Of a stretch of DNA of 64,000 nt, positions 4,538 to 63,484 are shown in pieces. This DNA is from an uncultured bacterium. Lineage in GTDB: Bacteria; Patescibacteriota; Dojkabacteria; SC72. Location of the stretch: NCBI GenBank assembly GCA_903906305.1, contig CAIVJR010000005.1, positions 162,113-226,112 on the forward strand, read 5' to 3'. The translations under genes and the position numbers were made by a program. A model generated the notes under the pieces. That model ran no database searches. It saw only the letters and a list, made by a program, of their open reading frames with translations, and had not been told where the DNA came from. Every line of letters begins with the position of its first letter. The first letter of the stretch is position 1.

Positions 4538-7664
<3,127 letters not shown>

Positions 7665-7824
7665 TATTGAAATTACTTTCCTATTCAGTTTTAAATGTGC
7701 AACTACAAATTCTGTAAATATTTATTACAAAATGGACCTACCTATACAGTAATAAATATGTACTACAAAATCTGGTTCATTTTTCAAGAATTAAAGCTTT
7801 AGACTTCGTTTCCTGTTATCTATA

Positions 7825-8065: not shown

Positions 8066-9616
<1,551 letters not shown>

Positions 9617-9917
9617 AAAACGCTTGACTTTGCAATTTGCCGAAGCAAAAAGACCAACCAGCGATTGTTGGATTTGATTTTTTTGACTAAATGAATTGTG
9701 TGACCAAATCACACGATATTTAAAAAGCCTAATTGTTTTAGACTTCCTATCACTCTTCAACTTTTAAGGAGCTGAATGTGGTAATAAAACGAAGATAAAA
9801 ATATTTCACGAACTGCAGGTATTCGTTAGAGCTATTCTCTAAGAGGATTCCCGTATCTCCTTTAGTATCCCAAACTCGTGAAAGGATTCTAACACAGGAA
9901 AAGTAGATATGCAAGTA

Positions 9918-17261: not shown

Positions 17262-17416
17262 TAATCGTCAAGGCTTTTTGGGCCATGGCACTTGCGATAT
17301 CTTCAAAACACATTCGAACCCCTTTCCTTTTTGAAAGAATATTAAGAGCTATGAATAATGGCAAGACGCCAATATCTTAGCGAATATTATACTATAAGTC
17401 TATTGGAAAATAAATA

Positions 17417-17490
17417 TGGTGGAAGGTGGAATCGAACCACCGACCTTAGGTTTATGAATCCTATGCTCTAACCTTCTGAGCTATTCCACC
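17417..17490 (-). tRNA. tRNA-Met (anticodon CAU), elongator type
   Basis: Reverse complement GGTGGAATAGCTCAGAAGGTTAGAGCATAGGATTCATAAACCTAAGGTCGGTGGTTCGATTCCACCTTCCACCA; anticodon loop TTCATAA. Confidence 0.8.
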
Positions 17491-17515
17491 AAGTTGTAAA
17501 AGATTATATCAAAAA

Positions 17516-19348: not shown

Positions 19349-19423
19349 TGGTTGCGGGGGTTGGACTCGAACCAACGACTTTCAGGTTATGAGCCTGACG
19401 AGCTGCCACTGCTCTACCCCGCG
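19349..19423 (-). tRNA. tRNA-Met (CAU), probable initiator tRNA-fMet (C1:A72 mismatch), CCA encoded
   Basis: Reverse complement CGCGGGGTAGAGCAGTGGCAGCTCGTCAGGCTCATAACCTGAAAGTCGTTGGTTCGAGTCCAACCCCGCAACCA. Unpaired 1:72 (C/A) is the bacterial initiator hallmark. Confidence 0.8.
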
Positions 19424-22038: not shown

Positions 22039-22077
22039 AAATGTTACTTAGCCGGAACCATTTGAGGAATGAAAATA

Positions 22078-22150
22078 TGGGAGTAGATGGAATCGGACCA
22101 TCGACCACGGCTTTATAAGAACCGCGCTCTACCAACTGAGCTATACTCCC
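22078..22150 (-). tRNA. tRNA-Ile with anticodon UAU (reads AUA); CCA not encoded; T-loop TCCGATT (C at position 55)
   Basis: Reverse complement GGGAGTATAGCTCAGTTGGTAGAGCGCGGTTCTTATAAAGCCGTGGTCGATGGTCCGATTCCATCTACTCCCA. Clean cloverleaf with anticodon loop CTTATAA. Confidence 0.7.
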
Positions 22151-22202
22151 ATGTAAAGTAGCCTATTCTATCAAAATAAGGATGATTTTAGAAGATGTAC
22201 CC

Positions 22203-24731
22203 TTAGAATCCCATTGGTGGGAAAGGAGAATTCACAGGATTAGGCTCAGGTTTCCTATCCAATTGTGACCTAATCTTAATATCCTCATTAATCACAGCCA
22301 CATCCCTACCATACTTAGCTCTAGAATACTTCTTAATGATATCTGCAACCTCCTTATGTTCTGGTAAATTGAAACCACTCTCCGGATACTTTGATCCATA
22401 TGAAGAATCCAAAGAAAAAGGAGCTGGATATATACCATCATTAAGAAGCTTAGTATACCAATGGCTAGATCCCTGATTCACCATATCTCCAGCTTTAATA
22501 TATGGTTCAAATTGTGTTTCGAGGAATTTCGCATCCTCAGCACTACATCTAGCAATGAATAGTGAACCCACATTTCCAAATACTGCATTCCTAATATCCT
22601 CTGGTAATTGCCCAATATATTGGTGTGCAATGGTTAAATCCAATCGATATTTTCTAGCTTCAGACAATATTGAAGAAAACTCTTCTGTAGCAAAGTTTTG
22701 GAACTCATCAGCATAGAAGAAGAAATCTTTCCTCTGACCCTCTGGGATATTCTCCCTACTCAGTGCAGCTGCTAACATCTTTTGAACTAAGAGTAAGCCA
22801 ATGAAGGACATATTATCCTCACCTATGGAACCCTTGGAAAGATTAATAATCAATATCTTCTGGTTATCCATAATATCTCTAAAATCAAAGGAAGACTTAG
22901 ATTGACCAATAATATTCCTTACTGCTAAGTTAGTTGTAAATTTATCAAACTTCGAAATGAAGTATGTTAAAGATTCAGACTTTGTTTTCTTATCCGTCTT
23001 AGCAACCTGATCAGTCCAATATCTTCTTACTAATTCATCCTTAACCTGAGGTAACCAATAGCTCATTACCCATTCCTCATCTTGCAACATTCTAACAACC
23101 TCTATCAATGTAGAACCTTCCTTGGACATAGCCGTAAGCATAGAGTTTCTGACAGCCTGTTGCATAGCTGGGCCTACATAACCCTGATTATGTGGGTCAA
23201 AGAGTCTTATGAGCAACGCAATGAAGCTATTAACGATCTGATGCTTATGCTGCTCATTGTAGAATTCCATTATATTAAGACCAAATGGTCTTTCAAAATC
23301 ACCTGCATTAAAATAGATGACATCTTCAGCTCTTTCAGGAGGAATTAGTTCTAAAATATCTTCAGCAGCTTGTCCGTGAGGATCAATGAAACAAACACCA
23401 TCCCCATTATATATATCCTGCAAAATCATTCGTTTCATCAACCAAGATTTACCAGTACCAGTTTGTCCTAGGATATATGAGTGGCGTCTCCTATCATCAC
23501 GTTTAAAACAGATTGTTTTTTTCTTCCCTCTAAAGATGTTATTCCCTATCCATATCGTATCCTTAGATTTGATATCTGAGCTAATGGAGTTATCCGCTAT
23601 GAATTCTCTTGAGAGTAGCCAGTGAATGTTAGGTGTTGATACATTTTTATTTGGGAAATGATACAAAGCAGCGAGCTCTTCAACATTAAATACTGATTCT
23701 GGATATTCCGGCGTTCTTCTATATACTACGTCATATATGAATTTCTTTTCGTCTTTCTTCTCTACTTTTACCTTCTTAAGCTTGTTAATCCCTGGATTAC
23801 TGTATTGATCAAAGGCGCCAATGATATTGTCCAAATGCATTTTAGCTATTGCCTGATCAGGAGCACTGGTGATAATTCTAATCTCTCCCATTAAACCTGG
23901 TTTTGCAACCTTCTTCCCTATGCCCTGAAGTTTTTCTTGAGATATACTAATTTTCTTCTTCTCCGGATCTGAATTATTGCTTTCAATCTTTTGAACAAAC
24001 TTAGATCCATTTTTTTGCCACTTAGAATCTGTAGGGGTGACTATCAATTGTACAATCACGCCTTCATTATCAGAGATCTTACTTAAAGTACTAAGTACAT
24101 TTGCTAAAGGATCCCCTGTAAAGTTTTCTGCAACTCTTAGTGGTGCATACGAGTCATCATCGAGTATCAATCTTGCATACGCAGACTCAGTATGTGGAGC
24201 AAATATGTTGTATTCATTTACAGTTGTAACATCAGCGTCTTGGTATGATCCTAGGATTTGTTTTTCAACGAGATCTGCTAATTTCTTTGGACAATGCACA
24301 AAGAATCGTATTTCTCCTGGTAATCCAACCATTTCAAAACTTACAGCATTTCCAACAGTAAAATGTTCTGCTAAGCCATCCCCTTTTCCTCCAATACCAC
24401 ATATATTTGCAAACATTTGTTCTGCAACCCCTATTTCCACCTCATTGTCTCTTGGTAATCTTACTTCCATCAATACTCCATCATTGGCTTTTTCGTTCCT
24501 ATCTTTGTGTACTAATTTTTTTTTAACAATGAAATATGCCCCTACGCAGGCACCTATTACAACAAGAAAAAGGCTTATCCATCCCCATGGGATATCTATG
24601 GTTTTACCACCATAGAGGTCAGTGTATGTATCTTTGGGATATGTAACATTCGATCCAGTCTCAACCTTGGTATTACTTTTACTTGGTGTAGGCCCTATTA
24701 CTTGTGAGTATGTGAATTCATCAGAATTCAT
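22203..24731 (-). CDS. Membrane-anchored P-loop ATPase of the T4SS coupling-protein / VirB4-TraC-like (FtsK-HerA superfamily, AAA_10/TraG-D_C-like) type
   Basis: 842 aa. TM at about aa 52-70. Walker A ILGQTGTGKSWL followed by FIDPHGQ. Walker B FFFYADEFQNF. Downstream TIAHQYIGQL resembles the conserved Q-x-x-QL of T4CPs (VirD4/TrwB/TraD). Confidence 0.55.
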   Translation of the reverse strand: MNSDEFTYSQVIGPTPSKSNTKVETGSNVTYPKDTYTDLYGGKTIDIPWGWISLFLVVIGACVGAYFIVKKKLVHKDRNEKANDGVLMEVRLPRDNEVEIGVAEQMFANICGIGGKGDGLAEHFTVGNAVSFEMVGLPGEIRFFVHCPKKLADLVEKQILGSYQDADVTTVNEYNIFAPHTESAYARLILDDDSYAPLRVAENFTGDPLANVLSTLSKISDNEGVIVQLIVTPTDSKWQKNGSKFVQKIESNNSDPEKKKISISQEKLQGIGKKVAKPGLMGEIRIITSAPDQAIAKMHLDNIIGAFDQYSNPGINKLKKVKVEKKDEKKFIYDVVYRRTPEYPESVFNVEELAALYHFPNKNVSTPNIHWLLSREFIADNSISSDIKSKDTIWIGNNIFRGKKKTICFKRDDRRRHSYILGQTGTGKSWLMKRMILQDIYNGDGVCFIDPHGQAAEDILELIPPERAEDVIYFNAGDFERPFGLNIMEFYNEQHKHQIVNSFIALLIRLFDPHNQGYVGPAMQQAVRNSMLTAMSKEGSTLIEVVRMLQDEEWVMSYWLPQVKDELVRRYWTDQVAKTDKKTKSESLTYFISKFDKFTTNLAVRNIIGQSKSSFDFRDIMDNQKILIINLSKGSIGEDNMSFIGLLLVQKMLAAALSRENIPEGQRKDFFFYADEFQNFATEEFSSILSEARKYRLDLTIAHQYIGQLPEDIRNAVFGNVGSLFIARCSAEDAKFLETQFEPYIKAGDMVNQGSSHWYTKLLNDGIYPAPFSLDSSYGSKYPESGFNLPEHKEVADIIKKYSRAKYGRDVAVINEDIKIRSQLDRKPEPNPVNSPFPPMGF

Positions 24732-25584: not shown

Positions 25585-27894
25585 TTATAACATGACCTTC
25601 CATATTACTGACCCATCAAGAATATACATTGAGGAGTTGGCAGAATCTACGACAAAGTCTTTCACATTATTCCACACTCCTTCTTTTTCTCCCCTGTACA
25701 CATACTGCTTCTTTAGAACTACTTCGTTAGGATGCAATATATCTCCCCCACCCTCTTGAGGTTTCTCGAAGTTAATAAATCGCTTGTTAGTTTTATCAAA
25801 TACGAAGAGTCCATCATCCAAACTACTTCTAGTAAAGCCTTTTGTTAATTCTCCTAAATCACCATTTACTCCGGTAATCGTCAACGGATTTTCAGCCTGT
25901 TTTTGTTCGGCATAGTTGTAGCTATACCTAATTAATTGTGGCATATCCTTTGTTAAAACATATACACTTAAATCTGCAAGAATATCACTGGCATTAGCCA
26001 ATCTATCATCTGGAATATATTTGTAATACAATCCATACCTATTCTCATATGAAAATACGGATTTCAATACTGCGTTATCATCTTGATCGACAAGATATAC
26101 ATTGTCTGATTCTGTAAGGATAATGAATTCACTAATATTCTTTGTTTTAATGTTTTCTCTGGCCAATCCTGAGAGCGCAACAAATGTTCCAAACCACTTC
26201 TCTGTATCAAAGGATGCTTTGATTACACCCGTTTTATTATCAAATACAAACACGCCCCCATTTCCCATTGATACATACTCAGGATCTTTAAGAAGTCCGT
26301 CAGTATCTACCAATCTTTGAGATGTTTTGTCATACAAAGATACCCTAAACACAGCATTCAATCCCTTGTCCGTAACTAAGAGGTATTCATTTCCAGAATC
26401 ATCCGAATATATCTCGATATCTGTAGGATTAGAGCTATCCCCAAATGATAATCTGGAATCAGCAAAAGTCGTTACTTTACCATTTGAATCGCTAACCCCT
26501 ACTCGTTTGTACAAAGTATCTTCTACAACCAAAATTCTAAAATCTAGACCATTTTTGATTACTAAATCTTTTTCTGATATGTTAGCTGGGACTTCTTTTA
26601 ATGCATTCTTTGCCTGATATATGGCTACTTCTGCAGTATTTTTGTCTGATGTAGACATATTTTCAGCTTTCTTTACTAAGGTCTCAGTATTTGTAAAAAT
26701 TTGACTTGCCTGATTATGTACAATGCTTGCTCTTCGAGCTTTGATTGTGAAATTGATTCCCAATGCTAATACAACAATTACAATTACAACCATAAGGACT
26801 AATCGTATTCTTTTTACTCGAGTATCTCTAGTTCTGTATCCATCAATTCTCATACCCTTTCCATTGAAATTGGGTCTGTTAATTTTAACTGTTGAAAGTT
26901 GAGAAGCTGCTTTTTTAAACCATTTTTTGTTGCCATATAGCTCGGTAAATCTTACTGCTATTTTTTTTGACAAAAGTGATATCTTTTCAGCTACTTTACG
27001 GGTAGCTTTAACTATCCAATTTTTAATTTTTACAAATATTGGTTTTATTTTTTCTAAATATACGCCCACTCTCCTGAAACTTGCTTTAGCCATTAAAAGC
27101 TGAACCTCTCGTTTTTCAAACGGCATTCTGTTTACACTAGAAACTTTTTCAGGTTCTTTCATAGCTGGAATTTCCTCTTGTTTAGGCTCAATAACTGGTT
27201 CTTTTTTTAGTATCGGCATATGGAATTGTGGTGCAAGAGGTTTGGTTTTAATTTGATTTTCATCTTCATATGCAAAAAATACTAACCCCTGAGTCCCAGA
27301 AAGCGTCTTCCCAATCTCTTTAAGCTCAGCAATAACTGGCTCTGCTGATGTTAGTTTGCCTAATTCTCCTAATGTTTTAGATATTACACCCATGGTAGAT
27401 ACTATTAGGATATCCCCTTCTTCTAGAGCAACACCTGCTGTACTTGCTTTGCTCTTCCCCAATATCTCCGTAATATTTACAAATTTTCCACTTTTGAAAA
27501 CAAAGACTTCGTTTTCTCCTAAGTTACCAATATACAAACCCTCTTTCTTCTGGGCTACCAATACGAAATTTACGTTGATTCCCAAATCTTCTAAGGATTT
27601 ATCATTTTTCATAAGGTTTTGAAGTTTCCTTACACCCTCTGTAATGCCATCTTTGAGAGATTCATTAGTGCTTTGTGTGGATGAATATATATATCCATCT
27701 AAGATTCCATCCCATACAAACTTACTTACTCTCTCTGCGGGTAATGAGGTATTTCCAAAGATTGAAAGAAGGCAGTAGATATCTCCTTCTTTTTCAGTTT
27801 TTTTTGTAGAATTTTCGGAAAAATGTTTTAAGATGGTAACAAAAGTACCTTTCTCCCTATTGTTCGAGATGAACTGTTGAGCAGTAATTTTCAT
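25585..27894 (-). CDS. Large single-pass membrane protein. The N-terminal cytoplasmic domain is about 370 aa; a TM follows; the C-terminal extracytoplasmic domain is about 380 aa, probably beta-rich. Hypothetical.
   Basis: 769 aa. Central TM LVLMVVIVIVVLALGINFTI. No catalytic motif recognised. Confidence 0.45.
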   Translation of the reverse strand: MKITAQQFISNNREKGTFVTILKHFSENSTKKTEKEGDIYCLLSIFGNTSLPAERVSKFVWDGILDGYIYSSTQSTNESLKDGITEGVRKLQNLMKNDKSLEDLGINVNFVLVAQKKEGLYIGNLGENEVFVFKSGKFVNITEILGKSKASTAGVALEEGDILIVSTMGVISKTLGELGKLTSAEPVIAELKEIGKTLSGTQGLVFFAYEDENQIKTKPLAPQFHMPILKKEPVIEPKQEEIPAMKEPEKVSSVNRMPFEKREVQLLMAKASFRRVGVYLEKIKPIFVKIKNWIVKATRKVAEKISLLSKKIAVRFTELYGNKKWFKKAASQLSTVKINRPNFNGKGMRIDGYRTRDTRVKRIRLVLMVVIVIVVLALGINFTIKARRASIVHNQASQIFTNTETLVKKAENMSTSDKNTAEVAIYQAKNALKEVPANISEKDLVIKNGLDFRILVVEDTLYKRVGVSDSNGKVTTFADSRLSFGDSSNPTDIEIYSDDSGNEYLLVTDKGLNAVFRVSLYDKTSQRLVDTDGLLKDPEYVSMGNGGVFVFDNKTGVIKASFDTEKWFGTFVALSGLARENIKTKNISEFIILTESDNVYLVDQDDNAVLKSVFSYENRYGLYYKYIPDDRLANASDILADLSVYVLTKDMPQLIRYSYNYAEQKQAENPLTITGVNGDLGELTKGFTRSSLDDGLFVFDKTNKRFINFEKPQEGGGDILHPNEVVLKKQYVYRGEKEGVWNNVKDFVVDSANSSMYILDGSVIWKVML

Positions 27895-39925: not shown

Positions 39926-40339
39926 TGGTGGAGACGGTGGAAATTGAATCCACGTCCAAAAGTTTTGCTTAGCATCATGTACAAACATATCTAATCCTGT
40001 ATAGCTAGACATATCTAAAAAGATTAGCAAAAAGATATATCTACTCAGTAATTAAATTCGTACATACTACTCTACTGACAAAATAGTAATAATATATCCT
40101 AGTAACGACTATCTTTTACCCCTAACTAAGAATAAGGATAAAGACACTAGTCAAACTTAATTGGCTAGACTTTAAGCAGCAAAGTTAAAGTTGAAATTTG
40201 GCATAGCCAAACTTGCTTTAATATTCTCTGCAAAAGCGACGATTTTGTTTTTTACACTTATCATTGTGCGTTGATTAACGAGACAACCCTCGGTTTGTGA
40301 CAACTAAACGCAGACTCCTGTCGAAAGCCTTACGTCCCC
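39926..40339 (-). ncRNA. ssrA: Transfer-messenger RNA (tmRNA, SsrA)
   Basis: The 5' GGGGACGTAAGGCTTTCGACAGGAGTC pairs with the 3' GGACGTGGATTCAATTTCCACCGTCTCCACCA. This gives a tRNA-Ala-like acceptor with G3:U70, a T-arm, and encoded CCA. The internal tag ORF ends …CCAAATTTCAACTTTAACTTTGCTGCTTAA (…PNFNFNFAA*). Confidence 0.8.
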
Positions 40340-44360: not shown

Positions 44361-45044
44361 TTGTATATGAATATATTAATTATAGAGAATTCCCCTACTC
44401 TTTCTCAATTGCTTAAAAAAGCGTTGGATGCATACGGATATGGGACGACATTGGATGATGAAAATTTTCAAAGTAGGTCGTTTATACCTAAAAAGGTTTT
44501 TGATTTCATCATATTAAATACCAATCTTGGAAAAGAATTAACCGCTGAAATACTTAGCTATATTAAGACTTCTGACAAAGATACAAAAGTGCTTGGTGTT
44601 TGTAATAAAGGAAGTTGGGTTGAGAAGGTAGAATTTCTTAATCATGGTGGTGATGATGTCCTTACATATCCTTTTCCAGTTCAAGAGCTACTTGCAAGGA
44701 TTCAATCCCTTATTCGTAGACCTAAGCGTTATGTTGATGAAAATTTATATGTTGGTGATTATGTCTTAGATACTAATAATCATATAGTTACAAAGAATGA
44801 AAAGGATATTAATCTGAGGAAGAAGGAATATTCCCTCTTTGAATATTTAGCTCGTAACAAAGATCGTGCCATTTCAAGATGTGAATTACTAGACCATGTA
44901 TGGGATTACAGAGAATACGTGGGATCTAATACCATTGATGTACATATTAAAAGGCTAAGAGAGAAACTAGACGACAAAGGTATTATCAATACAATACATG
45001 GCGTAGGTTACAAGATACATGTAAAGAAAACTAAAGCATCATAG
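44361..45044 (+). CDS. OmpR/PhoB-family response-regulator-like transcription factor with atypical (Asp-less) receiver domain
   Basis: C-terminal winged helix (…LSLFEYLARNKDRAISRCELLDHVWDY…IDVHIKRLREKL…GVGYKI). At the expected phospho-acceptor position (…DFIILNTNLG…) the receiver has Asn. Confidence 0.65.
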   Translation: MYMNILIIENSPTLSQLLKKALDAYGYGTTLDDENFQSRSFIPKKVFDFIILNTNLGKELTAEILSYIKTSDKDTKVLGVCNKGSWVEKVEFLNHGGDDVLTYPFPVQELLARIQSLIRRPKRYVDENLYVGDYVLDTNNHIVTKNEKDINLRKKEYSLFEYLARNKDRAISRCELLDHVWDYREYVGSNTIDVHIKRLREKLDDKGIINTIHGVGYKIHVKKTKAS

Positions 45045-46152
45045 GCATAACTAGATGCACGAAGTTTTCGTCACCTTTGATTTTGAATACTCCTGGTCTT
45101 ACAGGTTCAGAACATTCAAAGGTAATATTATCGGAATCTAGATGATTTAATACATCAGAAAGAAGTTTGGCACTAAATGCTATTTTAATATCATCTCCTT
45201 CTACCTTACATGTTAAATTACTTTGATTTTTACCTAAATCGGATTGTGTGGCTGAGAGAGAAATCTTTCCTTCTTTGTATATATCTAAAATCATCTTGTT
45301 TCCTAATACTGATCTAGCAATGATATTTATGACCTTAAGCGAATTTAACAACTCACTCTTAGAAATCTCACTCTTAGTCTTATATCCAGTAGGTATAATC
45401 TGCTTGTATTCAGGGAATTCCCCATCGATTAACCTAGACACTAAATCAACTTCTCCAAATCTGAAGAGAATCTGATTTCTGTCATTTAATACATAGAATT
45501 CAATAAATTCATCCTCACTGTCTAACTCTGTAGCAATATGTGCTAACTCTTCTAAAGCTCTTACAGGTACCAACATACTCTTGTCTTCCGTTGCTTTTGC
45601 AATCTTAACCATCTGTCTAGAAAGTCTCAGACCATCTGTACATACAAATGATAGCGTATCATCAACTATTTCAACCTTAACTCCTGTTAAAACAGGTTTA
45701 ATATCATCCTTTGCAGCTGCAAATGCAACTCTATTTATAGCTGTTACAAAATCAGCTTTGTTAATCCTAACAACAGGTTTCTGTCCCTCTTCGATCATAG
45801 GGATTGCTGGAAAATCATCAGCTGGCATTGTATTGAAACTTGCAGAGTTGTTTTCTGTAGATATATTGAAACTCTGTTTGTCTAATTCAACATCAACCTT
45901 CTCTTCTGGAATAGAGTTTATGAATTCTGATAACTGCTTAGCAGGTGCTGTTATTTTACCTTCAACTTTTACATCTGCCCCTATCCAAGTGCTTATGCTT
46001 AATTCAAGATCTGTAACCTTTAATATTACTTTACCTTTAACTATTTCAAAAAGAACATTGTTAAGGATTGGTAATCCTGGTCTGTTGTTTACTACTCGAC
46101 TTATTATGTTTAAGTATTTAGAAAATGTATCTTGATTGCATGAGAACTGCAT
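45031..46152 (-). CDS. dnaN: DNA polymerase III beta subunit (sliding clamp)
   Basis: 373 aa with three-domain clamp architecture. N-terminal MQFSCNQDTFSKYLNIISRVV…; adjacent to dnaA. Confidence 0.9.
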   Translation of the reverse strand: MQFSCNQDTFSKYLNIISRVVNNRPGLPILNNVLFEIVKGKVILKVTDLELSISTWIGADVKVEGKITAPAKQLSEFINSIPEEKVDVELDKQSFNISTENNSASFNTMPADDFPAIPMIEEGQKPVVRINKADFVTAINRVAFAAAKDDIKPVLTGVKVEIVDDTLSFVCTDGLRLSRQMVKIAKATEDKSMLVPVRALEELAHIATELDSEDEFIEFYVLNDRNQILFRFGEVDLVSRLIDGEFPEYKQIIPTGYKTKSEISKSELLNSLKVINIIARSVLGNKMILDIYKEGKISLSATQSDLGKNQSNLTCKVEGDDIKIAFSAKLLSDVLNHLDSDNITFECSEPVRPGVFKIKGDENFVHLVMPMML

Positions 46153-46612: not shown

Positions 46613-48070
46613 CTACTCCCTGATGAGTTTGTAGCAACTCTGGAGCTTTTCATTAAAGCGAGAATCCTTTTCCTTTAATGCTTTTATCTTCTCACACGCA
46701 TGTAATACCGTAGTATGATCTTTTCTGTTCACTTCTCGAGCTACTTGCTCAAGTGGCATGGATAATTCCGTTCTTAAGATATACATAACTATCTGTCTAC
46801 ACTGTGCTACATATGCTGTTCTTCTATCCCCTTTTATATCTGCCAACTTAACATCAAATATTTCAGATACACTCTTCATTACTTTTGCTGGAGATATTTT
46901 TTTTCGTTTACTCTCCAAATCTATTTGTAAAAGTCTTCCAATATCCTCATATGTAGGATTCATTCCTAATTTAAAGAGTGAAAGGACCTTAGTTAAAGCA
47001 CCTTCTAGCTCTCTAATATTGTTTTCTACATTCTTAGCTATTAAGTCAAGATATTCTCTTGGGACATCCACTGTTGCACCTTTGTCTATCATCAATTGTT
47101 GAAGTATAGCTAATCTGGTTTCATAATCAGGAGCTTGTATATCTGCAACCATTCCACCTTCAAACCTAGATCTTAATCTGTCTGTAATATTTTTAATTTC
47201 CTTAGGTGGCCTGTCTGACGCCAACACGATTTGTTTATTCGCCTGGTATAGTGTATTAAAGGTGTGGAAAAGCTCTTCCTGTGTTCTAGGATATGTTTCC
47301 ACAAACTGAACATCGTCAATTATTAATAGATCTACAGCTCTATACTTGTTTCTAAAGTCTTCGTTCCTCTTTGTTCTAATGGACTCTACCATTTCATTAA
47401 GGAATTGTTCTATTGAGATATATACGACCTTTTTGTCTGGGAATTTGTTAATAACTTCATTGCCGATCGCTTGCATTAAGTGAGTCTTCCCTACTCCCGT
47501 ATTACCATGGAAGAAAACAGGATTGTAAGCTTCTCCCAAGCTTTCTACAACGGCTTGTGCTACAGCTTCTGCCAATCGATTATTCGCTCCAACTATGAAG
47601 TTAGAGAAAAGATATCTAGGATTAAGTTGGGCTTTTTTAAGTGTATCTTCTTTCTGAATCTTCTCATTCTCTGCAGAAGAAAAAAGGTCTACTGACTGAT
47701 TGGTCTTGGGATCGTGGTACTCGTATTTGTATTTTTCCTTCACAGTTTGTGTTTCTCTTAGATTAATTTCGACCTCTAAATTAAGGCCACAAGATTTTCT
47801 TAGAGCATCTTGCAGAGAGTGCCTGTAATCCCTGAGCATCTTTTCTCTTTTGTATGGTATATCACACGAAATTTGGGCTACTCCATTTGAGATATTTTCA
47901 ATGTAACACCCTCCGAAGGTATTTTTAAATTCTTCGACGCCAATCATTAGCTTTAAATTTTCTTTTGCAGATCTCCACAGTGCATCTGGATCTAGTGTTT
48001 GAGAAGAGGAAGAATTAACAGTAATATCTGGTTTTGGTAATTCTTGTACGTTAAATTCTGCTTTGTCCAT
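46613..48070 (-). CDS. dnaA: Chromosomal replication initiator protein DnaA
   Basis: AAA+ Walker A GNTGVGKTHLMQAIGNE, sensor/box VII, and C-terminal DnaA-box-binding HTH (…DHTTVLHACEKI…). Confidence 0.95.
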   Translation of the reverse strand: MDKAEFNVQELPKPDITVNSSSSQTLDPDALWRSAKENLKLMIGVEEFKNTFGGCYIENISNGVAQISCDIPYKREKMLRDYRHSLQDALRKSCGLNLEVEINLRETQTVKEKYKYEYHDPKTNQSVDLFSSAENEKIQKEDTLKKAQLNPRYLFSNFIVGANNRLAEAVAQAVVESLGEAYNPVFFHGNTGVGKTHLMQAIGNEVINKFPDKKVVYISIEQFLNEMVESIRTKRNEDFRNKYRAVDLLIIDDVQFVETYPRTQEELFHTFNTLYQANKQIVLASDRPPKEIKNITDRLRSRFEGGMVADIQAPDYETRLAILQQLMIDKGATVDVPREYLDLIAKNVENNIRELEGALTKVLSLFKLGMNPTYEDIGRLLQIDLESKRKKISPAKVMKSVSEIFDVKLADIKGDRRTAYVAQCRQIVMYILRTELSMPLEQVAREVNRKDHTTVLHACEKIKALKEKDSRFNEKLQSCYKLIRE

Positions 48071-50575: not shown

Positions 50576-51964
50576 ATGGATATACGAAAATTTCTTAAAC
50601 AGTATTGGTTTCAACTTGTGGTTTTTGTTTTGTTGGCTATTCCCCTACTCTTTGTAATACAGGAGAACGTTCTCCGATCGGTTATTCTTCTCCTTTCATT
50701 AATAATATGGTTGGTAGTGAGTATTAAAACAAAAAGTGTTGTATTTTCCAGTCTTTTGTATATATTAATTACTCTCCCATTCAACCTCACCTACCAGTTA
50801 CCTCTCCGTGTTCTATTTTTTAATACAGACCCATATGTAAGCGGTATCTATACTAACTATTTAGTACCAACTCTCTCAATATTGGACATAGGATTAGTGC
50901 TTTTAATTGCTTCGTATATATATGAATATGGTTGGAAACATATTCAAGTGGTTCTACATAAATACCTTTTCTATCTGGTTCCTTTTGCATTGTTTCTTCT
51001 CTTACAGAGTGTGTTCAGGTTAGATCTAAACTCCTTAGTTAATGGTGGGAGATTAATCTTTGGTCTTACCTCCCTACTCTTCCTTATCGACTATTTTAAG
51101 ACTCAAAAACATTCAAACTTGTACAAATGCGTTTTGTGGATTTCCATAGCTTCTGTCCTTCTACAGGGAGTGCTAGGTACTATGCAGTTCTTAGGTGGTG
51201 CATCGCTTGGACTTTCTATGCTTGGTGAATCTCAAGTGGTTAGTGGTATGCAAGGTTCTAGTTTTGTGACTTTAAACAATGAAGTATTTCTACGTGCATA
51301 TGGTACATTCCCCCATCCTAATGTTTTAGGTGGATATTTTGTGATGAATGTTCTTTTGGGGGTATTTCTTTATTCGAAATCAAAAGATTTTTACAAAAAA
51401 TTATCTATTTTGTTAATCATTTTGAGTAGTATATTTGTAACATTGACGTTTTCTAGAATTTCAATTTTGCTTGTATTGGGAATTGTTTTTGTAACATTGG
51501 TATACAAATTGATCAAAGGAAAGTTGTTTTCATTTACACCGCTACTACTTGTTGAGCGTTTTACTAATTTAATGGCTGGGAATGATACTAGTTGGGCGGA
51601 CAGGGTTAATTTGATGAAGAGTAGTTTCAGTGTGATGAAGAATAATTGGATGGTGGGCACAGGGTTGGGGAATTTTACTAAGGGGATGGAGAGTGTAATC
51701 CCTACTACTGTGAATGGGGTTTTGTTAATACAACCGGTACATAACGTGGCGTTGTTAATGATTACTGAATTAGGAATATTAGGCTCCCTACTCTATGTTG
51801 TGCTTTTAGGGAAGATATTGATTAGTAATATTTCAAAGATGAATTGGTTTAAATGGTTGGTGATTATATCTTTGGTTATTATTGGATGTTTTGACCACTA
51901 TTTGTTTAGCTTACCACAGGGAATGGTTATTGGAGGAATCTTAAGTTTACTACTAATATTATGA
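50576..51964 (+). CDS. Polytopic membrane protein, O-antigen ligase/polymerase (Wzy_C)-like
   Basis: 462 aa, about 12 TM, with a central larger loop. Assignment is by architecture only. Confidence 0.4.
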   Translation: MDIRKFLKQYWFQLVVFVLLAIPLLFVIQENVLRSVILLLSLIIWLVVSIKTKSVVFSSLLYILITLPFNLTYQLPLRVLFFNTDPYVSGIYTNYLVPTLSILDIGLVLLIASYIYEYGWKHIQVVLHKYLFYLVPFALFLLLQSVFRLDLNSLVNGGRLIFGLTSLLFLIDYFKTQKHSNLYKCVLWISIASVLLQGVLGTMQFLGGASLGLSMLGESQVVSGMQGSSFVTLNNEVFLRAYGTFPHPNVLGGYFVMNVLLGVFLYSKSKDFYKKLSILLIILSSIFVTLTFSRISILLVLGIVFVTLVYKLIKGKLFSFTPLLLVERFTNLMAGNDTSWADRVNLMKSSFSVMKNNWMVGTGLGNFTKGMESVIPTTVNGVLLIQPVHNVALLMITELGILGSLLYVVLLGKILISNISKMNWFKWLVIISLVIIGCFDHYLFSLPQGMVIGGILSLLLIL

Positions 51965-56594: not shown

Positions 56595-58277
56595 TTAGAT
56601 AATCACCGTGAGGATAATTGGTTCTCTCTCTGTCTTCTTGTAAATGAGCTTGCTGAGCTCTTTTTCGATTGCATCCTTAAAGTTATCAATGTTTATATTC
56701 TTGTTATCTTGTGCCTGTCTCTCCCAATCGTGATGTATATCAAAGATGAGGTTTTCAATCTCTTTGAGTAACTCTTGGGAGCCTTTCATATATACAAATC
56801 CTCTAGAAATGAATCTTGGTCTACCAATGATTTTCTTTGTCTTAATATTCATATTTAATACTGTTACAAACATTCCAAATTCTGAAAGTTGCTTTCTGTC
56901 CTTTAATACAATATCTCCAGTATCTCCTACCCCGAGTCCGTCGATGAGGATTGGTTTTGATTCAACTTTCTTTCCTTTAACCCAGTTGTGTCCATCTAAC
57001 ATCCATACTTGTCCATCATCGGTTAAGAGTATATCTTCGTCTCTCATCCCCCACTTTAGGAAGTTCTGCTTGTTGAAATATCTGAATGTTAAAGGACCAT
57101 GGATAGGCATGACGGTTCTTGGTTGGATGAGGTCATACATCATCTTCATATCTTCTTGGTTTCCATGACCTGTTGAGTGAATCTTTAAGTCGATGGTATC
57201 TTTTACTAAATCTGCACCTAATGCAATTATTCTGTCTGTCATTCTGCCGATGGTACTAATATTCTCAGGAATTTCTGAAGAAGACATAATGATTAAATCA
57301 CCCTTATGTATTTTTATGAACTTATGTTCATTTAATGAAATTCTGTTTAATGCTGCAAATCTTTCTCCTTGGCTTCCAGTACAGAGTAAAAGTAACTCAT
57401 TGTCTGCATATTTGTTAATATCCTTTTCTTTAATGAACAAAGAGTCTTCTGCTGTGATATATCTCTTTTTTCTTGCGATATCTATAGCTTGATCTAAACT
57501 CCTTCCTGAAAGGACAATTTTTCTTTTGGTAATCTTTGCTACTTCAATTAATGAATACAATCGGGTAATTAAAGAGGAAAATGCCGCGACTACTACTCTG
57601 CCCTTTTGCTTACTAATTAAGTCTGCGAGATTTTCAAAAATTTCTTTTTCAGAAGGTGCTTTTCCAGGGTTAGTAGCATTGGTACTTTCCATTAATGCAA
57701 CATCAATTCTTCCTCTTAATTGCCTTAATTTCTCGTAATCTGTTTGAGGTTCATTTGCTGGTGTTAAATCAATTTTGTAGTCTCCTGAGAAGAATACATT
57801 TCCATTTGGTGTCTCCAAAAAGATCGAAAATGCATCTGGAATACTGTGGTTAATACCTATGAATGTAGCTTGGAAATTTTTACCAATCTTCAACTGTGAT
57901 TTTCTATCTACTCCAAATATCTTAACCTTGTCTAGCATATGGTATTCCTTCATTTTCTCTTCTATGAGGGCCTTTGCAAAACCTCCCGCATAGATTGGAG
58001 GGTATCCTAATTCTGGCAAGATCCATTTTAAAGCACCCGTATGGTCTAAATGGCCGTGGGTGATTAATATGGCTTTGATTTTTGCTTTGTTTTGCTTTAG
58101 ATAGCTAACGTTAGGGATGAGGTAATCTATTCCGTACATTTCTTGTCCTGGGAATGAGTATCCTGCATCTATCATTACTATCTCATCTCCGTACTCAACG
58201 AAATTACAATTTCTTCCGATTTCTGTAGTTCCTGAAAGCGTGCAGAGCTTTAACAATTCTTTTCTATTTGTAAACAT
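56595..58277 (-). CDS. rnj: Ribonuclease J (metallo-beta-lactamase/beta-CASP)
   Basis: HxHxDH motif ILITHGHLDHTGAL, beta-CASP motifs, and …HTGHGNQEDM…. 560 aa. Confidence 0.85.
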   Translation of the reverse strand: MFTNRKELLKLCTLSGTTEIGRNCNFVEYGDEIVMIDAGYSFPGQEMYGIDYLIPNVSYLKQNKAKIKAILITHGHLDHTGALKWILPELGYPPIYAGGFAKALIEEKMKEYHMLDKVKIFGVDRKSQLKIGKNFQATFIGINHSIPDAFSIFLETPNGNVFFSGDYKIDLTPANEPQTDYEKLRQLRGRIDVALMESTNATNPGKAPSEKEIFENLADLISKQKGRVVVAAFSSLITRLYSLIEVAKITKRKIVLSGRSLDQAIDIARKKRYITAEDSLFIKEKDINKYADNELLLLCTGSQGERFAALNRISLNEHKFIKIHKGDLIIMSSSEIPENISTIGRMTDRIIALGADLVKDTIDLKIHSTGHGNQEDMKMMYDLIQPRTVMPIHGPLTFRYFNKQNFLKWGMRDEDILLTDDGQVWMLDGHNWVKGKKVESKPILIDGLGVGDTGDIVLKDRKQLSEFGMFVTVLNMNIKTKKIIGRPRFISRGFVYMKGSQELLKEIENLIFDIHHDWERQAQDNKNINIDNFKDAIEKELSKLIYKKTEREPIILTVII

Positions 58278-58289
58278 GATTTGAGATTA

Positions 58290-58520
58290 TACCAGATATG
58301 GGTGTGATATAATAATGGAAGTCGTTAGTACAAGACTAGTCATCTTGGAGGCTTGGAAAGAAATCTATATGTAGTATATGTATAGAGAGTAGAATCCTCT
58401 ACCCTTGTAAGGGTTGTGAGTTTAGGATAGTAATATCTTAAAGAAGTAAGGTGGTAACGCGTATATTCGCCCTTACATTAGAATATCAATATGGTATTCT
58501 GGTGTAAGGGCCTTTTTATT
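58290..58520 (+). promoter_or_regulatory. Probable T-box riboswitch leader (T-box sequence plus terminator/antiterminator) upstream of the hypothetical-valS operon
   Basis: aagtaaggtggtaacgcg (58444-58461) matches T-box consensus AATTAGGGTGGTACCGCG at 15/18. It is followed by a terminator hairpin gcccttaca…tgtaagggc plus T5 (58469-58517). GUAAGG (58446-58451) can alternatively pair with CCUUAC (58471-58476) as an antiterminator, leaving a UGGU bulge. Confidence 0.45.
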
Positions 58521-58534
58521 TATATTACAAAACT

Positions 58535-59179
58535 ATGTCGGACGAAAATAAATCAACGGAAGGTTCGAGTGAAGAATTCTCAATTAATCCAACTCCCCCA
58601 ATAGGTGGAAGTAGCGATTCCGAGGGATTAAGTTGGGATGATTTTGTAAAAACATATGGTACTGGAGGTGGAGCATTTACCTTGAATCAGGATTCTTCGA
58701 AATCAGAAGTCCCGCTAAAAGAAAAATTGTCAGAAGAAAATGCGGCAAAGATTTTAGAAGATGATCTTAGAACTGAAAGTCCTCTAACACCCCTAGCCTT
58801 TGTATATGAATTTAAGCTTTACGAGAAAGAAGATCTTGAATCAGCTGAAATGATTGGTAGTATGCGTGAAGCTAGAGGAGAGATAAAAACAATATTGGAT
58901 AGCTATCCAAGGGATATGCTTCGCTCCTTTGCAGATGATATGACCCTTTGGGGTGGATGGCAGAATTTAATAAAGCATGGATATGAAAAAACGAAGGGAA
59001 ATAACTTTGGTGAATCTATACAGAAGTATATTAACTTAAGAGTTTCACTTCTGGAAACCCAACAAAATAATTTACGTTTAACTCCGGTTGAGGCCGCAGA
59101 CATGCGATCATTAAGGGAGTCTTTTAGAAAAACGTCGGAAATCATTCAAAGACAAATTAGTTCAAATAATAATAAATAA
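58535..59179 (+). CDS. Hypothetical protein (214 aa), translationally coupled to valS
   Basis: ORF whose stop is 3 nt before valS ATG. Acidic N-terminus, no motif. Confidence 0.45.
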   Translation: MSDENKSTEGSSEEFSINPTPPIGGSSDSEGLSWDDFVKTYGTGGGAFTLNQDSSKSEVPLKEKLSEENAAKILEDDLRTESPLTPLAFVYEFKLYEKEDLESAEMIGSMREARGEIKTILDSYPRDMLRSFADDMTLWGGWQNLIKHGYEKTKGNNFGESIQKYINLRVSLLETQQNNLRLTPVEAADMRSLRESFRKTSEIIQRQISSNNNK

Positions 59180-59181
59180 AC

Positions 59182-61446
59182 ATGGAAAGAAATATACCAA
59201 AAGTATTTGAATCTACAACATCGGAACCAGAAATATACAAACTCTGGGAATCCTCTGGCTACTCTACTCCTGAAAAAGTAGAAGAATATTTGAGAGAGAA
59301 CGGATTGAATGTTGAAAAACCATTCACGATTACTCTTCCTCCTCCAAATGCCAATGGTAATTTACACTTGGGTCATATGTGTGGGTATTCATTCCATGAT
59401 GCATTTGCAAGATTCAATAGAATGACAGGTCACCCTACTCTCCTAGTGCCTGGAAAAGATCATGCTGGTATCCAAACAGAGAGTGCCTTTACAAAAGTGT
59501 TACAAAATAATGGCGAGGATAAATGGGAAATGGGAAGAGATGAATTTTACAAACGATGCTATGACTTCTGTATGCAGAATGCTGATAATGCTAGAACCCA
59601 GGAAAAGAACATAGGGCTTTCGGCAGATTACAGTAGAGAATTCTTCACTCTAGATCCTAAGTTAACCAAGATCATCTACGAAACATTTTACAAGATGTAT
59701 GAGGATGGAATGGTTTACAGAGATAAACGTATTGTAAATGTATGTCCTAGTTGTAAAACAGCTTTAGCAGATATTGATACGGACCATGAAGAGCGAAGAG
59801 GTATCTTTGCATATATCATCTACCCTCTCATTGATGAAGCAGATAAACAATTAGCTAAAGAGAGGTTTGGTGTAGAAGGCATTACAGTTGCTACAACTAG
59901 ACCTGAAACTATGTTAGGAGATACGGCTGTTGCAGTTAATCCAAATGATCCTAGATACAAAGAATTCATAGGTAAGAAGGTTTTACTTCCAATTGCAAAC
60001 CGAGAGATTCCAATCATTGCTGAAGAAGAAGTAGATCTTGAAACAGGAACGGGTGCTTTGAAAGTTACTCCTGCTCACTCCCCTGTCGACTTTGAGATTG
60101 GTAAACGACAAGGCTTAGAAATCATCAATGTAATTGATGAGGAAGGTAAAATGACTGGAAATATTCCTGACAGATTCAAAGGTATGGGGACAACGGATTG
60201 TTCAAGAGCGTTGTGTGGTGAATTAACTGAATTAGGATTGTTAGTAAGGATTGAAAATATTAAGCATGAGGTAGCAGTATGTGAGAGATGCGGTACCCCT
60301 ATAGAGCCTGTCATATCTAATCAATGGTATGCAAATGTCGAACCATTGGCGAAGAAAGCATTAGAAGCACTGCATAATGGTGATGTTAAGGTCATACCTG
60401 AGGGTCAGCAAAAAGCTTTAGAATTCTTCTATGAAAATATTCAACCGTGGTGTATTTCTAGACAACTTTGGTGGGGTCAGAGAATTCCTGTTTGGTATTC
60501 TGGGAGTAAGAAGCTACATGATTGGTTGAATGAAAATCAAGGTAAAACGGTTGGAGATTTTGAAAAGGAATTTAATGTAAAAGCTAATGGTACTGGTGAG
60601 ATTAAGTTGGGCGAGGATAGCCCAGAGGGTATATGGGAACAAGAGTCGGATATGTTTGATACTTGGTTTAGTTCTGGTCAGGTTCCTTTCTCCACCCTTG
60701 GTGGTCCTGAGGGTGATGATTACAAGAAGTACTATCCTACTCAGATGATGATTCATGCTAGGGATATTCTTTTCTGGTGGACTGCACGTATGATTATGTT
60801 TGGTCTCTACAGAACTGGTGAGGTTCCCTACTCTACGGTATTACTTACGGGTATGATTCTTGCTGCTGATGGTTCTAAGATGTCTAAATCTAAGGGTAAT
60901 GGTATTGAACCTAATGATGTATTCCAAAAGTATGGTGCCGATGCTTTAAGACTTTGGTATTACTCTGATGCGTTACCTGGTTCTAATGCTCCTCTTAGAG
61001 AAGAGAAGATTAAGGGTAACAGAAACTTTGTTAACAAGATTTGGAATGCTAGTAGGTTCATATTGATGAATATTGAGGATGAGGAAATAGAGAAGATACA
61101 GGGGAAGGAAGTGGCTGATACTGACAGAGTTAAGGCTACTAAAGAGCATATTGAAAAGGTTGGTAAATATCTGGAGAAGTATCAATTAAATCTTGGTGCT
61201 GAAACTATTCGGGAATTCTTTTGGCATGAGTTGTGTGACAAATGGATTGAGGAGATTAAAACAGAGATTAAGGATCAACCTGTTGGTAGTGATTTAAGAA
61301 TTGAAAAACTTTCTGAATTGTTATGGTTGTTAAAAAAGAATTTAAAGATTATGCATCCTTTTGTTCCTTTTGTTACTGAGGCTGTATGGCAAGAGTTAGT
61401 AAAATTGGGATTAGCGGAGGGAGTATTAATGGTTGAACAGATTTAA
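59182..61446 (+). CDS. valS: Valine--tRNA ligase (short form)
   Basis: Class I aaRS. PPPNANGNLHLGH (ValRS-type HIGH region), an editing-domain region, and KMSKSKGN. Confidence 0.75.
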   Translation: MERNIPKVFESTTSEPEIYKLWESSGYSTPEKVEEYLRENGLNVEKPFTITLPPPNANGNLHLGHMCGYSFHDAFARFNRMTGHPTLLVPGKDHAGIQTESAFTKVLQNNGEDKWEMGRDEFYKRCYDFCMQNADNARTQEKNIGLSADYSREFFTLDPKLTKIIYETFYKMYEDGMVYRDKRIVNVCPSCKTALADIDTDHEERRGIFAYIIYPLIDEADKQLAKERFGVEGITVATTRPETMLGDTAVAVNPNDPRYKEFIGKKVLLPIANREIPIIAEEEVDLETGTGALKVTPAHSPVDFEIGKRQGLEIINVIDEEGKMTGNIPDRFKGMGTTDCSRALCGELTELGLLVRIENIKHEVAVCERCGTPIEPVISNQWYANVEPLAKKALEALHNGDVKVIPEGQQKALEFFYENIQPWCISRQLWWGQRIPVWYSGSKKLHDWLNENQGKTVGDFEKEFNVKANGTGEIKLGEDSPEGIWEQESDMFDTWFSSGQVPFSTLGGPEGDDYKKYYPTQMMIHARDILFWWTARMIMFGLYRTGEVPYSTVLLTGMILAADGSKMSKSKGNGIEPNDVFQKYGADALRLWYYSDALPGSNAPLREEKIKGNRNFVNKIWNASRFILMNIEDEEIEKIQGKEVADTDRVKATKEHIEKVGKYLEKYQLNLGAETIREFFWHELCDKWIEEIKTEIKDQPVGSDLRIEKLSELLWLLKKNLKIMHPFVPFVTEAVWQELVKLGLAEGVLMVEQI

Positions 61447-61999: not shown

Positions 62000-63484
62000 T
62001 TGATATCATCTACAGTAATAATTAAAAGAGAATATATAATGAATAAACAAAAATTCTACCTAACAACCACACTCCCCTACGTAAATGCAGAACTACATAT
62101 AGGACATGCCTTAGAATTTGTACAAGCAGATACAATTGTAAGATATTTTAGAAACAAATTAGGAAAAGAAAATGTATTTTTCAATGTAGGAACAGATGAG
62201 CACGGGCAAAAAATATACAACAAAGCACAAGAAGAAGGATTAGAATTAAAACCATTTGTAGATAAATATGCACAAAGAGTAATGGATTTTTGTAAACTCT
62301 TTAATGTCGAATATGATAACTTCTACAGAACATCAGATACAAAACACCATGAATTAGCACAAGTATTCTGGAACAAATGTAATGAGAATGGAGATATATA
62401 CAAAAAACAATACTCAGGACAATATTGTGTAGGATGTGAGAGATATCTAACAGACAAAGAACTTGTAGATGGAAAATGTCCAGATCACCATACAGTACCT
62501 GAATTAAAAACAGAGGAAAACTATTTCTTTAGACTATCAAAATACAGAGAGCCCCTACTCAAATGGTTGGAGGAAAAAAAAGCATTTGTAAAACCTGTAT
62601 ACAAAATGGATGAATTAAAGAAATTCATATCTGAAATGGAAGATATTAGTATATCGAGATTAAGAGAAAATCTTCCATGGGGTATTGAAGTACCTAATGA
62701 CCCTACTCAGATGATGTATGTATGGTTTGATGCATTAACAAACTATGCTATTGCAGTTGGGTACGGAACTGATGAAGAAAGATTTAAACAATGGTGGGGA
62801 CCAGTACAAACATGTGGCCCAGACAACCTGAGATTCCAAGGTGCTATATGGCAAGGAATGTTAGCTTCTGCAGGATTACCGCAATCAGAGAAATTACTTG
62901 TGCATGGAATGGTATTAGGTCTTGATGGAACCAAAATGTCTAAACTAGTTGGAAATATTGTTTCCCCATTTGAACAAGAACAAAAATATGGTGCTGAAGT
63001 AGTTCGATTCTACCTTTTAACAGGTATTCCTACATATGACGATGCAGCTTACAAGGAAGATGACTTGGTGAATGAATATAACTCAAGATTGGCTAACAAT
63101 TTTGGAAATCTTCTGAATCGTGTCATTCATTTAGCTAATGCAAAAGAAGCAGAGATGAACAATGAAGCTACCGTAGAGTCTGAGTTTAAAGCAACAGTAG
63201 ATACATATGTAAAAGAGATTAATAGTTTCTACGAAGATTATGAAATATATCTTGCTGGAGAGAAAATTGATCAACTTGCAGATTATGGAAACAAATATAT
63301 TACCAAAGAAGAACCATGGTCAAAGGAAAAACCCGAAGCAGAGAAAATATTGAACAACTTAAGCTATCTTTTGAAGCATGTAATTGCCGGATATTCCCCT
63401 ATTCTTCCTGTTAGCAGTGTAAAAGCATCTGAAGCTTTAGAGAAGAGGGAGAAGCTCATTTTGTTTCCTAAATTAGAAGCATAA
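62000..63484 (+). CDS. metG: Methionine--tRNA ligase (minimal form with zinc knuckle)
   Basis: PYVNAELHIGHALE (HIGH), CVGCERY…CPDH zinc knuckle, KMSKLVGN (KMSKS). Confidence 0.85.
   Translation: MISSTVIIKREYIMNKQKFYLTTTLPYVNAELHIGHALEFVQADTIVRYFRNKLGKENVFFNVGTDEHGQKIYNKAQEEGLELKPFVDKYAQRVMDFCKLFNVEYDNFYRTSDTKHHELAQVFWNKCNENGDIYKKQYSGQYCVGCERYLTDKELVDGKCPDHHTVPELKTEENYFFRLSKYREPLLKWLEEKKAFVKPVYKMDELKKFISEMEDISISRLRENLPWGIEVPNDPTQMMYVWFDALTNYAIAVGYGTDEERFKQWWGPVQTCGPDNLRFQGAIWQGMLASAGLPQSEKLLVHGMVLGLDGTKMSKLVGNIVSPFEQEQKYGAEVVRFYLLTGIPTYDDAAYKEDDLVNEYNSRLANNFGNLLNRVIHLANAKEAEMNNEATVESEFKATVDTYVKEINSFYEDYEIYLAGEKIDQLADYGNKYITKEEPWSKEKPEAEKILNNLSYLLKHVIAGYSPILPVSSVKASEALEKREKLILFPKLEA

Follow-up and report, generated by a model that had tools for sequence, protein, structure and literature searches.

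How does a bacterium of the candidate phyla radiation (CPR) control the gene for its valine--tRNA ligase, valS, and is the RNA that precedes this gene a T-box riboswitch? The question is raised by a 64,000-nucleotide stretch of contig CAIVJR010000005.1 (GenBank assembly GCA_903906305.1, positions 162,113 to 226,112 of the forward strand; hereafter the window), for which an earlier note had proposed a valine T-box with an antiterminator/terminator switch in front of an operon of a hypothetical open reading frame (ORF) and valS. Our analysis supports this proposal. The leader is very probably a tRNA-Val-responsive T-box riboswitch, predicted to act by transcription attenuation, and it appears to join a decoding module of the class III type to a terminator of the class I type.

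At the Rfam gathering thresholds, no T-box is found in the window. When matches are reported by E value, the T-box family RF00230 matches 58306-58477 end to end. The E value is 1e-6 on a 401-nt region and, with the whole window searched for all 4227 families, 1.7e-4; the window contains no other T-box match. The check with RF00230 suggested in the earlier note therefore yields a match, but one of 36.6 bits, far below the gathering score of 93. The low score results from the absence of the distal Stem I: Stem III and the T-box/antiterminator align excellently, while 5 nt stand in for a 48-nt distal Stem I segment of the model. Orthologous leaders from three other loci score 40.0 (L035), 33.9 (L003), and 32.6 (L028) bits; the homology signal is reproducible and always far under threshold. 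PyrR and miRNA matches over the terminator (E 0.2-6) reflect its long hairpin and were set aside. The fold of the leader stands out from shuffled sequences (z = -5.3). Because RF00230 scores below gathering, the doubt that the note itself had raised, that of a missing covariance-model hit, is answered only by comparative evidence at the level of the leader family.

That family was assembled in two ways. A search for a strict T-box-core pattern, covering about 50 Dojkabacteria loci, identified the leader in 8 of them, upstream of valS, and a metagenome scan, with a pattern of the invariant Stem I and Stem II positions that left the loop codon free, contributed 15 further members; three other matches of the scan (L087, L088, and L095) were chance matches. 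The total comes to 23 leaders (17 of them unique, in about five lineages), all from Dojkabacteria and all upstream of valS, which they precede either directly or with the 214-aa ORF (hereafter ORF-X) between. The window leader is thus conserved, with covariation, in 22 other loci. Pairs were counted on a MAFFT alignment of the leaders, with Stem II parsed by anchors because MAFFT misaligns the variable middle. Over Stem I, Stem III, and the antiterminator, 96.6% of the cells are paired and 15 of the 28 pairs show double changes; none of 500 shuffles did as well, and slid partners were 37-55% paired. RNAalifold, given no structure, recovers the Stem I helices, a hairpin at 58401-58414, Stem III, and antiterminator helices A1 and A2 with their 7-nt bulge, with a compensatory change in 19 of 33 pairs. 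GUC, UGGU, RAG, and the S-turn strands are invariant in the family; loops, the Stem II apex, and flanking spacers vary.

The T-box sequence proper had been recognized in the earlier note: AAGTAAGGTGGTAACGCG (58444-58461) indeed agrees with AATTAGGGTGGTACCGCG at 15 of 18 positions, and AAGGUGGUAACGCG (58448-58461) agrees at 12 of 14 positions with the 14-nt T-box consensus AGGGUGGNACCGCG, GGUGGUA, C, and CG being invariant in the 17 unique leaders. GTAAGG and CCTTAC are complementary as claimed and make up helix A1, and the bulge does open with TGGT (Table 1). A1 is 99% and A2 100% paired, with one double change each, and RF00230 aligns this stretch with high posterior probability. The bulge occurs as UGGUAAC, UGGUAUC, or UGGUACC, with UGGU in every member. 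Bacterial tRNA-Val carries an A73 discriminator, which the UGGU of the bulge would fit.

The terminator arms GCCCTTACA (58469-58477) and TGTAAGGGC (58503-58511) are both present, with a spacer of 25 nt rather than the 27 nt first given; a terminator scan describes the 43-nt stretch as a 20-bp stem with a 3-nt loop, then CTTTTTATTT, and the T run does end (58517) 17 nt before the ATG at 58535. Across the family the terminator is 98.2% paired, with double changes in 9 of 20 pairs (slid controls, 36-50%), and is followed by a conserved run of 4-6 U. Positions 58469-58476 belong both to its 5' arm and to the 3' strands of A2 and A1, so that terminator and antiterminator are mutually exclusive. Their computed energies are -28.4 and -8.7 kcal/mol, respectively, and a weak antiterminator set against a strong terminator is the usual default-OFF logic of T-boxes. 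The hairpin is not the terminator of an upstream plus-strand gene, since the upstream RNase J gene lies on the minus strand.

All 17 unique leaders share the extended -10 promoter sequence TGRTATAAT, which lies 7-9 nt upstream of the CG that is invariant in Stem I and which relatives without the leader also keep. Transcription would start at about 58319-58321, at the foot of Stem I, and the segment 58290-58318, which the note had counted as leader RNA, is the promoter region. The long canonical Stem I that it expected in 58290-58440 is absent, and so are the AG bulge and distal loop. In all members Stem I is a short hairpin with a lower helix of 2-5 bp, an internal loop (5'-GNUANUA / 3'-GA), a 5-bp upper helix, and a 7-nt apical loop. 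The lower helix is 88% paired with double changes in 4 of 5 pairs, the upper 95% with 3 of 5, and a covariance model built on Stem I (R2) gives 58-79 bits in all members. The GUN specifier codon that had been anticipated does exist, as GUC, but it stands in the apical loop of this short hairpin. That loop reads YUWGUCM in 17 of 17 unique leaders, U at position 2 and GUC being invariant; the base after GUC is A in 16 and C in one (L028). All 15 members added by the metagenome scan, where the codon was free, carry GUC, and the scan gave no evidence of the same scaffold with another codon. In the genes of the window GUC is the rarest valine codon (78 of 933, or 8.4%, as compared to 47% for GUA). 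Irrespective of codon usage, T-boxes are known to favor C as the third base of the specifier (the "C rule"; PMC7583486), which the invariance of GUC despite its rarity matches.

Between specifier and T-box, the 3-4-bp lower helix of Stem II covaries (GGA/UCC, GGG/CCC, UAGG/CCUA, UGAG/CUCA, and, in L035, CGGA/UCCG), and the upper hairpin ranges from 3 to 10 bp. Between these covarying helices all leaders have the S-turn signature AAGAA / (R)GUAGAA, in which AAGAA and UAGAA are invariant. Three leaders have a IIA/B pseudoknot: the IIA helices are ACAG/CUGU in L023, GCAG/CUGC in L028, and GCAG/CUGU in L035, and the IIA loop pairs with downstream sequence (UCCUA/UAGGA, GGUGA/UCAUC, and ACCC/GGGU, respectively). 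The clade of the window has at this place a plain hairpin, ACCCU-UGUA-AGGGU, which is the second, upstream hairpin ACCCTTGTAAGGGT correctly noticed before, at 58401-58414; double changes occur in 4 of its 5 pairs, and it is plausible as a functional substitute for the pseudoknot. Stem III is 99.3% paired with double changes in 6 of 9 pairs. The RAG before it and a purine run after it are conserved in the leaders; both motifs have been described for T-boxes (PMC7583486, PMC11297988).

Table 1. Positions of the valS leader elements and of the adjoining genes in the window
Feature	Position	Strand	Details
Intergenic gap between RNase J and ORF-X			257 nt; houses the leader
Extended -10 promoter	58305-58313	+	TGATATAAT; TATAAT at 58308-58313
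Short Stem I	58319-58354	+	Lower helix 58319-58323 / 58350-58354; upper 5-bp helix 58331-58335 / 58343-58347
Stem I asymmetric internal loop	58324-58330 / 58348-58349	+	5'-GUUAGUA / 3'-GA
Specifier loop	58336-58342	+	CUAGUCA; GUC (Val) 58339-58341, then A58342
Stem II	58355-58397	+	Lower GGA 58355-58357 / UCC 58395-58397; upper 58364-58373 / 58377-58386
Stem II S-turn-type internal loop	58358-58363 / 58387-58394	+	AAGAAA / GAGUAGAA
Discriminator, 5' half	58418-58445	+	RAG (GAG 58418-58420), Stem III, GAA 58443-58445
Stem III	58421-58429 / 58434-58442	+	Loop GUAA
T-box sequence and antiterminator	58446-58476	+	A1 GUAAGG 58446-58451 / CCUUAC 58471-58476
Helix A2	58459-58461 / 58468-58470	+	GCG / CGC
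7-nt bulge	58452-58458	+	UGGUAAC; UGGU 58452-58455 could pair with tRNA 3'-ACCA
Intrinsic terminator	58469-58521	+	20-bp stem with 3-nt loop (58469-58511), then CUUUUUAUUU
RNase J gene	56595-58277	-	Divergent from leader; Pfam RNase J domains
ORF-X	58535-59179	+	First operon gene; 214-aa acidic protein
valS	59182-61446	+	Valine--tRNA ligase, 754 aa; two NCBIfam equivalog models above cut-off

The downstream valS, the GUC of the loop, and the UGGU of the bulge make tRNA-Val the expected ligand, and we can propose how the leader would work. Transcription would start at about 58320 from the extended -10 promoter, and the nascent leader would fold into a class III-like decoding module that presents GUC in the 7-nt apical loop of the short Stem I. 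The tRNA-Val anticodon would pair with GUC, and the S-turn purines of Stem II would clamp the codon-anticodon helix, with the hairpin in the position of the IIA/B pseudoknot; the helices of this module come from covariation, and the tertiary roles are carried over from solved ileS T-box structures. Were the tRNA uncharged, its 3'-ACCA would pair with UGGU and stabilize the weak antiterminator, allowing read-through into ORF-X and valS; with charged tRNA, or none, the stronger terminator would form and transcription would stop at about 58517. The alternative structures and their energies were computed, and the switching between them is what we infer. Recognition of the tRNA would involve the anticodon and the 3' end only, since there is no double T-loop to engage the elbow.

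The two parts of this architecture can each be set against a known class. For class III we used the ileS leaders of Nocardia farcinica, Mycobacterium tuberculosis, and M. smegmatis (PDB 6UFM, 6UFG; PMC10482949, PMC7583486, bioRxiv 10.1101/2023.02.28.530422); the published classification (PMC10482949) characterizes this class, with N. farcinica ileS as its example, by a short Stem I that lacks the double T-loop, by an apical loop of 5-6 nt that holds the specifier, and by a dependence on Stem II. The Dojkabacteria leaders share with this class the short Stem I lacking an interdigitated double T-loop, the specifier in the apical loop followed by a purine, a Stem II with S-turn at a Stem I-II junction of 0 or 1 nt, the IIA/B pseudoknot (in L023, L028, and L035), and the succession of RAG, Stem III, and a T-box bulge UGGN; the decoding module is also of similar size, about 95 nt in the window leader and 98 nt in N. 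farcinica. They differ in that the output of the window leader is an intrinsic terminator instead of Shine-Dalgarno sequestration, the specifier and gene are GUC (Val) and valS whereas all described class III T-boxes are Ile/ileS, the host belongs to the CPR Dojkabacteria and is not an actinobacterium, the apical loop of the window leader is larger (7 nt, as compared to 5-6), no tandem G.A signature occurs in the internal loop at the K-turn position, and a plain hairpin replaces the pseudoknot in the window's clade. For class I (RF00230; e.g. Bacillus subtilis tyrS and Firmicutes valS leaders), the likenesses are the T-box sequence, the A1/A2 antiterminator with 7-nt bulge opposed to a stronger terminator with U run, the Stem II S-turn, Stem III, the default-OFF logic, the regulation of the cognate aminoacyl-tRNA synthetase gene, and C at the third specifier position. 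Unlike class I, the Dojkabacteria leaders lack the distal two-thirds of Stem I, hence the AG bulge, distal loop, and elbow contact; their specifier is not in an internal loop, they appear to have no canonical K-turn, the base of A2 is G-C instead of G.U, and RF00230 scores about 33-40 as compared to 93.

Could the specifier nevertheless lie where class I would have it, in an internal loop on the 3' side of Stem I after GAG 58348-58350 (GCU or CUU), the apical hairpin being a truncated upper Stem I? The Rfam alignment of the window reads this way, with UUAGUA placed on the specifier-loop AGUA and GGAG on the GAA that precedes the codon. However, the nucleotides after GGAG are not conserved among leaders (GCUU, GUUA, GUCU, GCCU, GGAUU, ACAC), provide no common codon and no match to valS, and show covarying pairing with the leader 5' end; this free variation and pairing mean that they are not a codon. 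For L035, the Rfam alignment itself matches the apical GUC-A to the specifier and following purine of the model, and CCUUGGAG to the K-turn 3' strand and the lower helix of Stem I. We hold this layout to be extremely improbable. A leucine T-box was rejected too, CUU at the Rfam specifier position of the window alignment not being conserved across leaders. A translational T-box like those of actinobacterial ileS, in which the 3' helix would hide the ribosome-binding site, has in its favor that all ultrashort T-boxes described are translational and regulate ileS, according to a 2023 preprint (bioRxiv 10.1101/2023.02.28.530422; see also PMC7583486), and that the 16S rRNA in the window ends with a CCUCC anti-Shine-Dalgarno tail. 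Yet a 20-bp stem with the conserved U run directly behind it makes a textbook intrinsic terminator, the 3' arm of the helix contains no GGAG-like sequence at a usable distance (the nearest AAGGG is at least 24 nt from the start codon), and no lineage has a Shine-Dalgarno-like sequence in or after the 3' helix, the spacer to the start codon, which stands 17-26 nt past the U run, being A/U only in every lineage. Because terminator and U run are kept and no Shine-Dalgarno sequence is present, we favor output by transcription termination, by which the leader should work, over hiding of a ribosome-binding site; the translational alternative is quite unlikely.

In the remaining alternative the leader would have lost its response to tRNA, either as a relic in decay or as a constitutive attenuator, and its terminator would damp valS or serve some other factor. 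Of the observations that weigh against a working tRNA-Val switch, the low score, the lack of a double T-loop, of the G.U wobble, and apparently of a canonical K-turn, and the dispensability of the leader speak for it. The match to RF00230 stays under the Rfam threshold. In every member a 7-nt loop caps Stem I, and there is no AG bulge, distal loop, or elbow-binding double T-loop, the last described as needed by transcriptional T-boxes (PMC7583486). A canonical K-turn appears to be missing as well: at its position the 3' strand GGAG fits the consensus, and the 5' strand (CGNUANUA in the window, C-GNU-ANUA in 17 of 17 leaders) is without the G-A step. With transcription starting at the foot of Stem I there would be no room for a K-turn strand further upstream, and that start was placed from the promoter consensus alone. 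At the base of A2 (columns 174/186), where canonical T-boxes have a conserved G.U wobble that acts as a steric sensor of the aminoacyl group (PMC7583486), the pair is G-C in 16 of 17 leaders, A-U in one, and never G.U. The window's clade has its plain hairpin and no IIA/B pseudoknot. No tRNA-Val gene occurs in the window or in 56 scanned loci. Finally, about 40 Dojkabacteria valS loci, including very close relatives, are without the leader, which is dispensable, as two loci with a deletion scar (below) also indicate. Against decay stand the compensatory changes that keep both alternative structures and the decoding helices across lineages whose ValS proteins are 68-75% identical, and the pattern of constraint, in which GUC, UGGU, RAG, and S-turn strands do not change while loops, Stem II apex, and spacers are free to vary. 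We find the relic reading highly doubtful, and retain that of a tRNA-Val-responsive T-box.

We searched 845 kb of collected sequence with R2 and a second covariance model, R1, for the discriminator. Only known leaders were matched, with no hidden T-box in leaderless valS loci or elsewhere in the window; R1 also matches the canonical T-box of an Anaerolineales locus outside its training set. Two leaderless loci, L002 and L039, encode ValS 91% and 94% identical, respectively, to that of the window and have kept the promoter and lost the leader. L002 also keeps a piece of about 25 nt (GTTAGCACACATCTAATCA), similar to the 5' half of Stem I and fused to the valS start, which is a deletion scar. The riboswitch is polymorphic among near-identical strains. 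In a neighbor-joining tree of ValS, leader-bearing loci fall into four lineages, one of which is the deepest branch, and leaderless L002 groups within the window's clade; the simplest reading of this distribution would be ancestral presence with repeated loss. Comparison of L002:3930-4012, L039:3930-4012, and L061:3935-4000 with window 58278-58360 shows an identical extended -10 with the whole leader and ORF-X gone. An apparent second, divergent Stem I at L082 1-41(-) was discarded as an assembly foldback: L082:1-66 (ENA UOYA01080985) is a perfect inverted copy of the leader 5' end running into AGATCGGAAGA (Illumina adapter), a foldback chimera.

The operon itself is as the note had it, with valS starting 2 nt past the end of ORF-X and its identity settled by the NCBIfam equivalogs NF004349 (803.7 bits; cut-off 704) and TIGR00422 (771.5 bits; cut-off 612.1). 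A match to the Pfam LeuRS editing domain is cross-family similarity, and a LeuS identity was rejected. The ValS of the window lacks the C-terminal coiled-coil domain of bacterial ValRS, its match spanning model positions 2-687 of 860, and its length of 754 aa is also seen across all Dojkabacteria relatives. The only other aminoacyl-tRNA synthetase gene in the window, metG (62000-63484, +), has no T-box or other leader match; T-box control within this stretch of genome is limited to valS.

The description of the 214-aa gene as conserved does not hold: ORF-X is one of a family of rapidly evolving genes restricted to certain lineages, and three loci with the T-box have no member of it (L003, L023, and L028; in L028 valS starts about 24 nt past the terminator U run). 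It has no Pfam or NCBIfam match, and its relatives number three in a library of 5.8 billion proteins and five among 1.84 billion cluster representatives. The orthologous ORFs (L001, L004, L017, L035, and L078-L093) encode acidic, helical proteins of 132-214 aa that diverge fast even where the leaders are >90% identical and that share PF.P..AIYY and a C-terminal CLDKTN.IINS.L motif. An AlphaFold model (predicted template modeling score, 0.70) shows a confident helical domain (residues 60-214) and a disordered acidic N-terminus; a search of the PDB returned no matching fold (best E 0.69). ORF-X would be co-regulated with valS by its position only.

A search with the 754-aa ValS returned 77 related loci, the closest 97-68% identical, and these closest relatives are from metagenome-assembled genomes labelled Candidatus Dojkabacteria, Patescibacteria group, or (loosely) Saccharibacteria; the host is a member of the Dojkabacteria (WS6), within the CPR. 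The rRNA genes of the window have oddities typical of the CPR: according to the Rfam alignments, the 16S rRNA (8068-9617, -) has an altered 515F primer region (GUGCCAGAAGCAUCGGUGAU) and the 23S rRNA (4530-7666, -) a 70-nt insertion near model position 290. ARAGORN identifies a tRNA-Ile with anticodon UAU, unusual for bacteria, at 22077-22151 (-), and there are two tRNA-Met(CAU) genes (17416-17491 and 19349-19423). The transfer-messenger RNA (39926-40339, -) is 414 nt long, and the tag peptide predicted from it, at 27 aa, is unusually long (VKNKIVAFAENIKASLAMPNFNFNFAA). At 9918-11765 (-) lies the gene for an ATP-dependent DNA ligase of 615 aa (TIGR00574, 338.6 bits), and no NAD-dependent LigA was found among the large ORFs of the window that were tested. 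From the positions of dnaA (46613-48070) and dnaN (45031-46152), the window includes the replication origin region. Three ORFs of 842, 769, and 462 aa (22203-24731, -; 25585-27894, -; and 50576-51964, +) have no NCBIfam match at E <= 1e-20.

What the leader means depends on how far it departs from the T-boxes described so far. A full-text literature search found no T-box reports in the CPR, Patescibacteria, or Saccharibacteria, although absence there is not proof; the finding extends the range of T-box regulation to the CPR. TBDB sought short-Stem-I T-boxes only in Actinobacteria and otherwise used the Rfam model (PMC7778990), and elements such as this one are missed both by the Rfam gathering score and by TBDB's Actinobacteria-only class II search. 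We see about an even chance that the Dojkabacteria leaders represent a fifth T-box class native to the CPR: a terminating one, in which tRNA-Val would be sensed by its anticodon and 3' end only, with no double T-loop, canonical K-turn, or G.U sensor, and with a hairpin for the IIA/B pseudoknot in one clade. T-box classes are now tied to a mode of action: according to reviews, a transcriptional T-box needs a long Stem I with the elbow-binding motif to capture tRNA fast, and the ultrashort form belongs to the translational ileS leaders of Actinobacteria; an ultrashort Stem I with an intrinsic terminator and another amino acid would break that link. If the fifth-class reading is true, a long Stem I is not required for co-transcriptional tRNA sensing, and this would be the smallest natural transcriptional T-box with a Stem II. 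At about 200 nt the leader would offer a compact natural test case of how much T-box is needed for a kinetic, co-transcriptional decision, and the exchange of pseudoknot for hairpin, together with presence or absence among near-identical strains, provides natural experiments that parallel the published mutagenesis.

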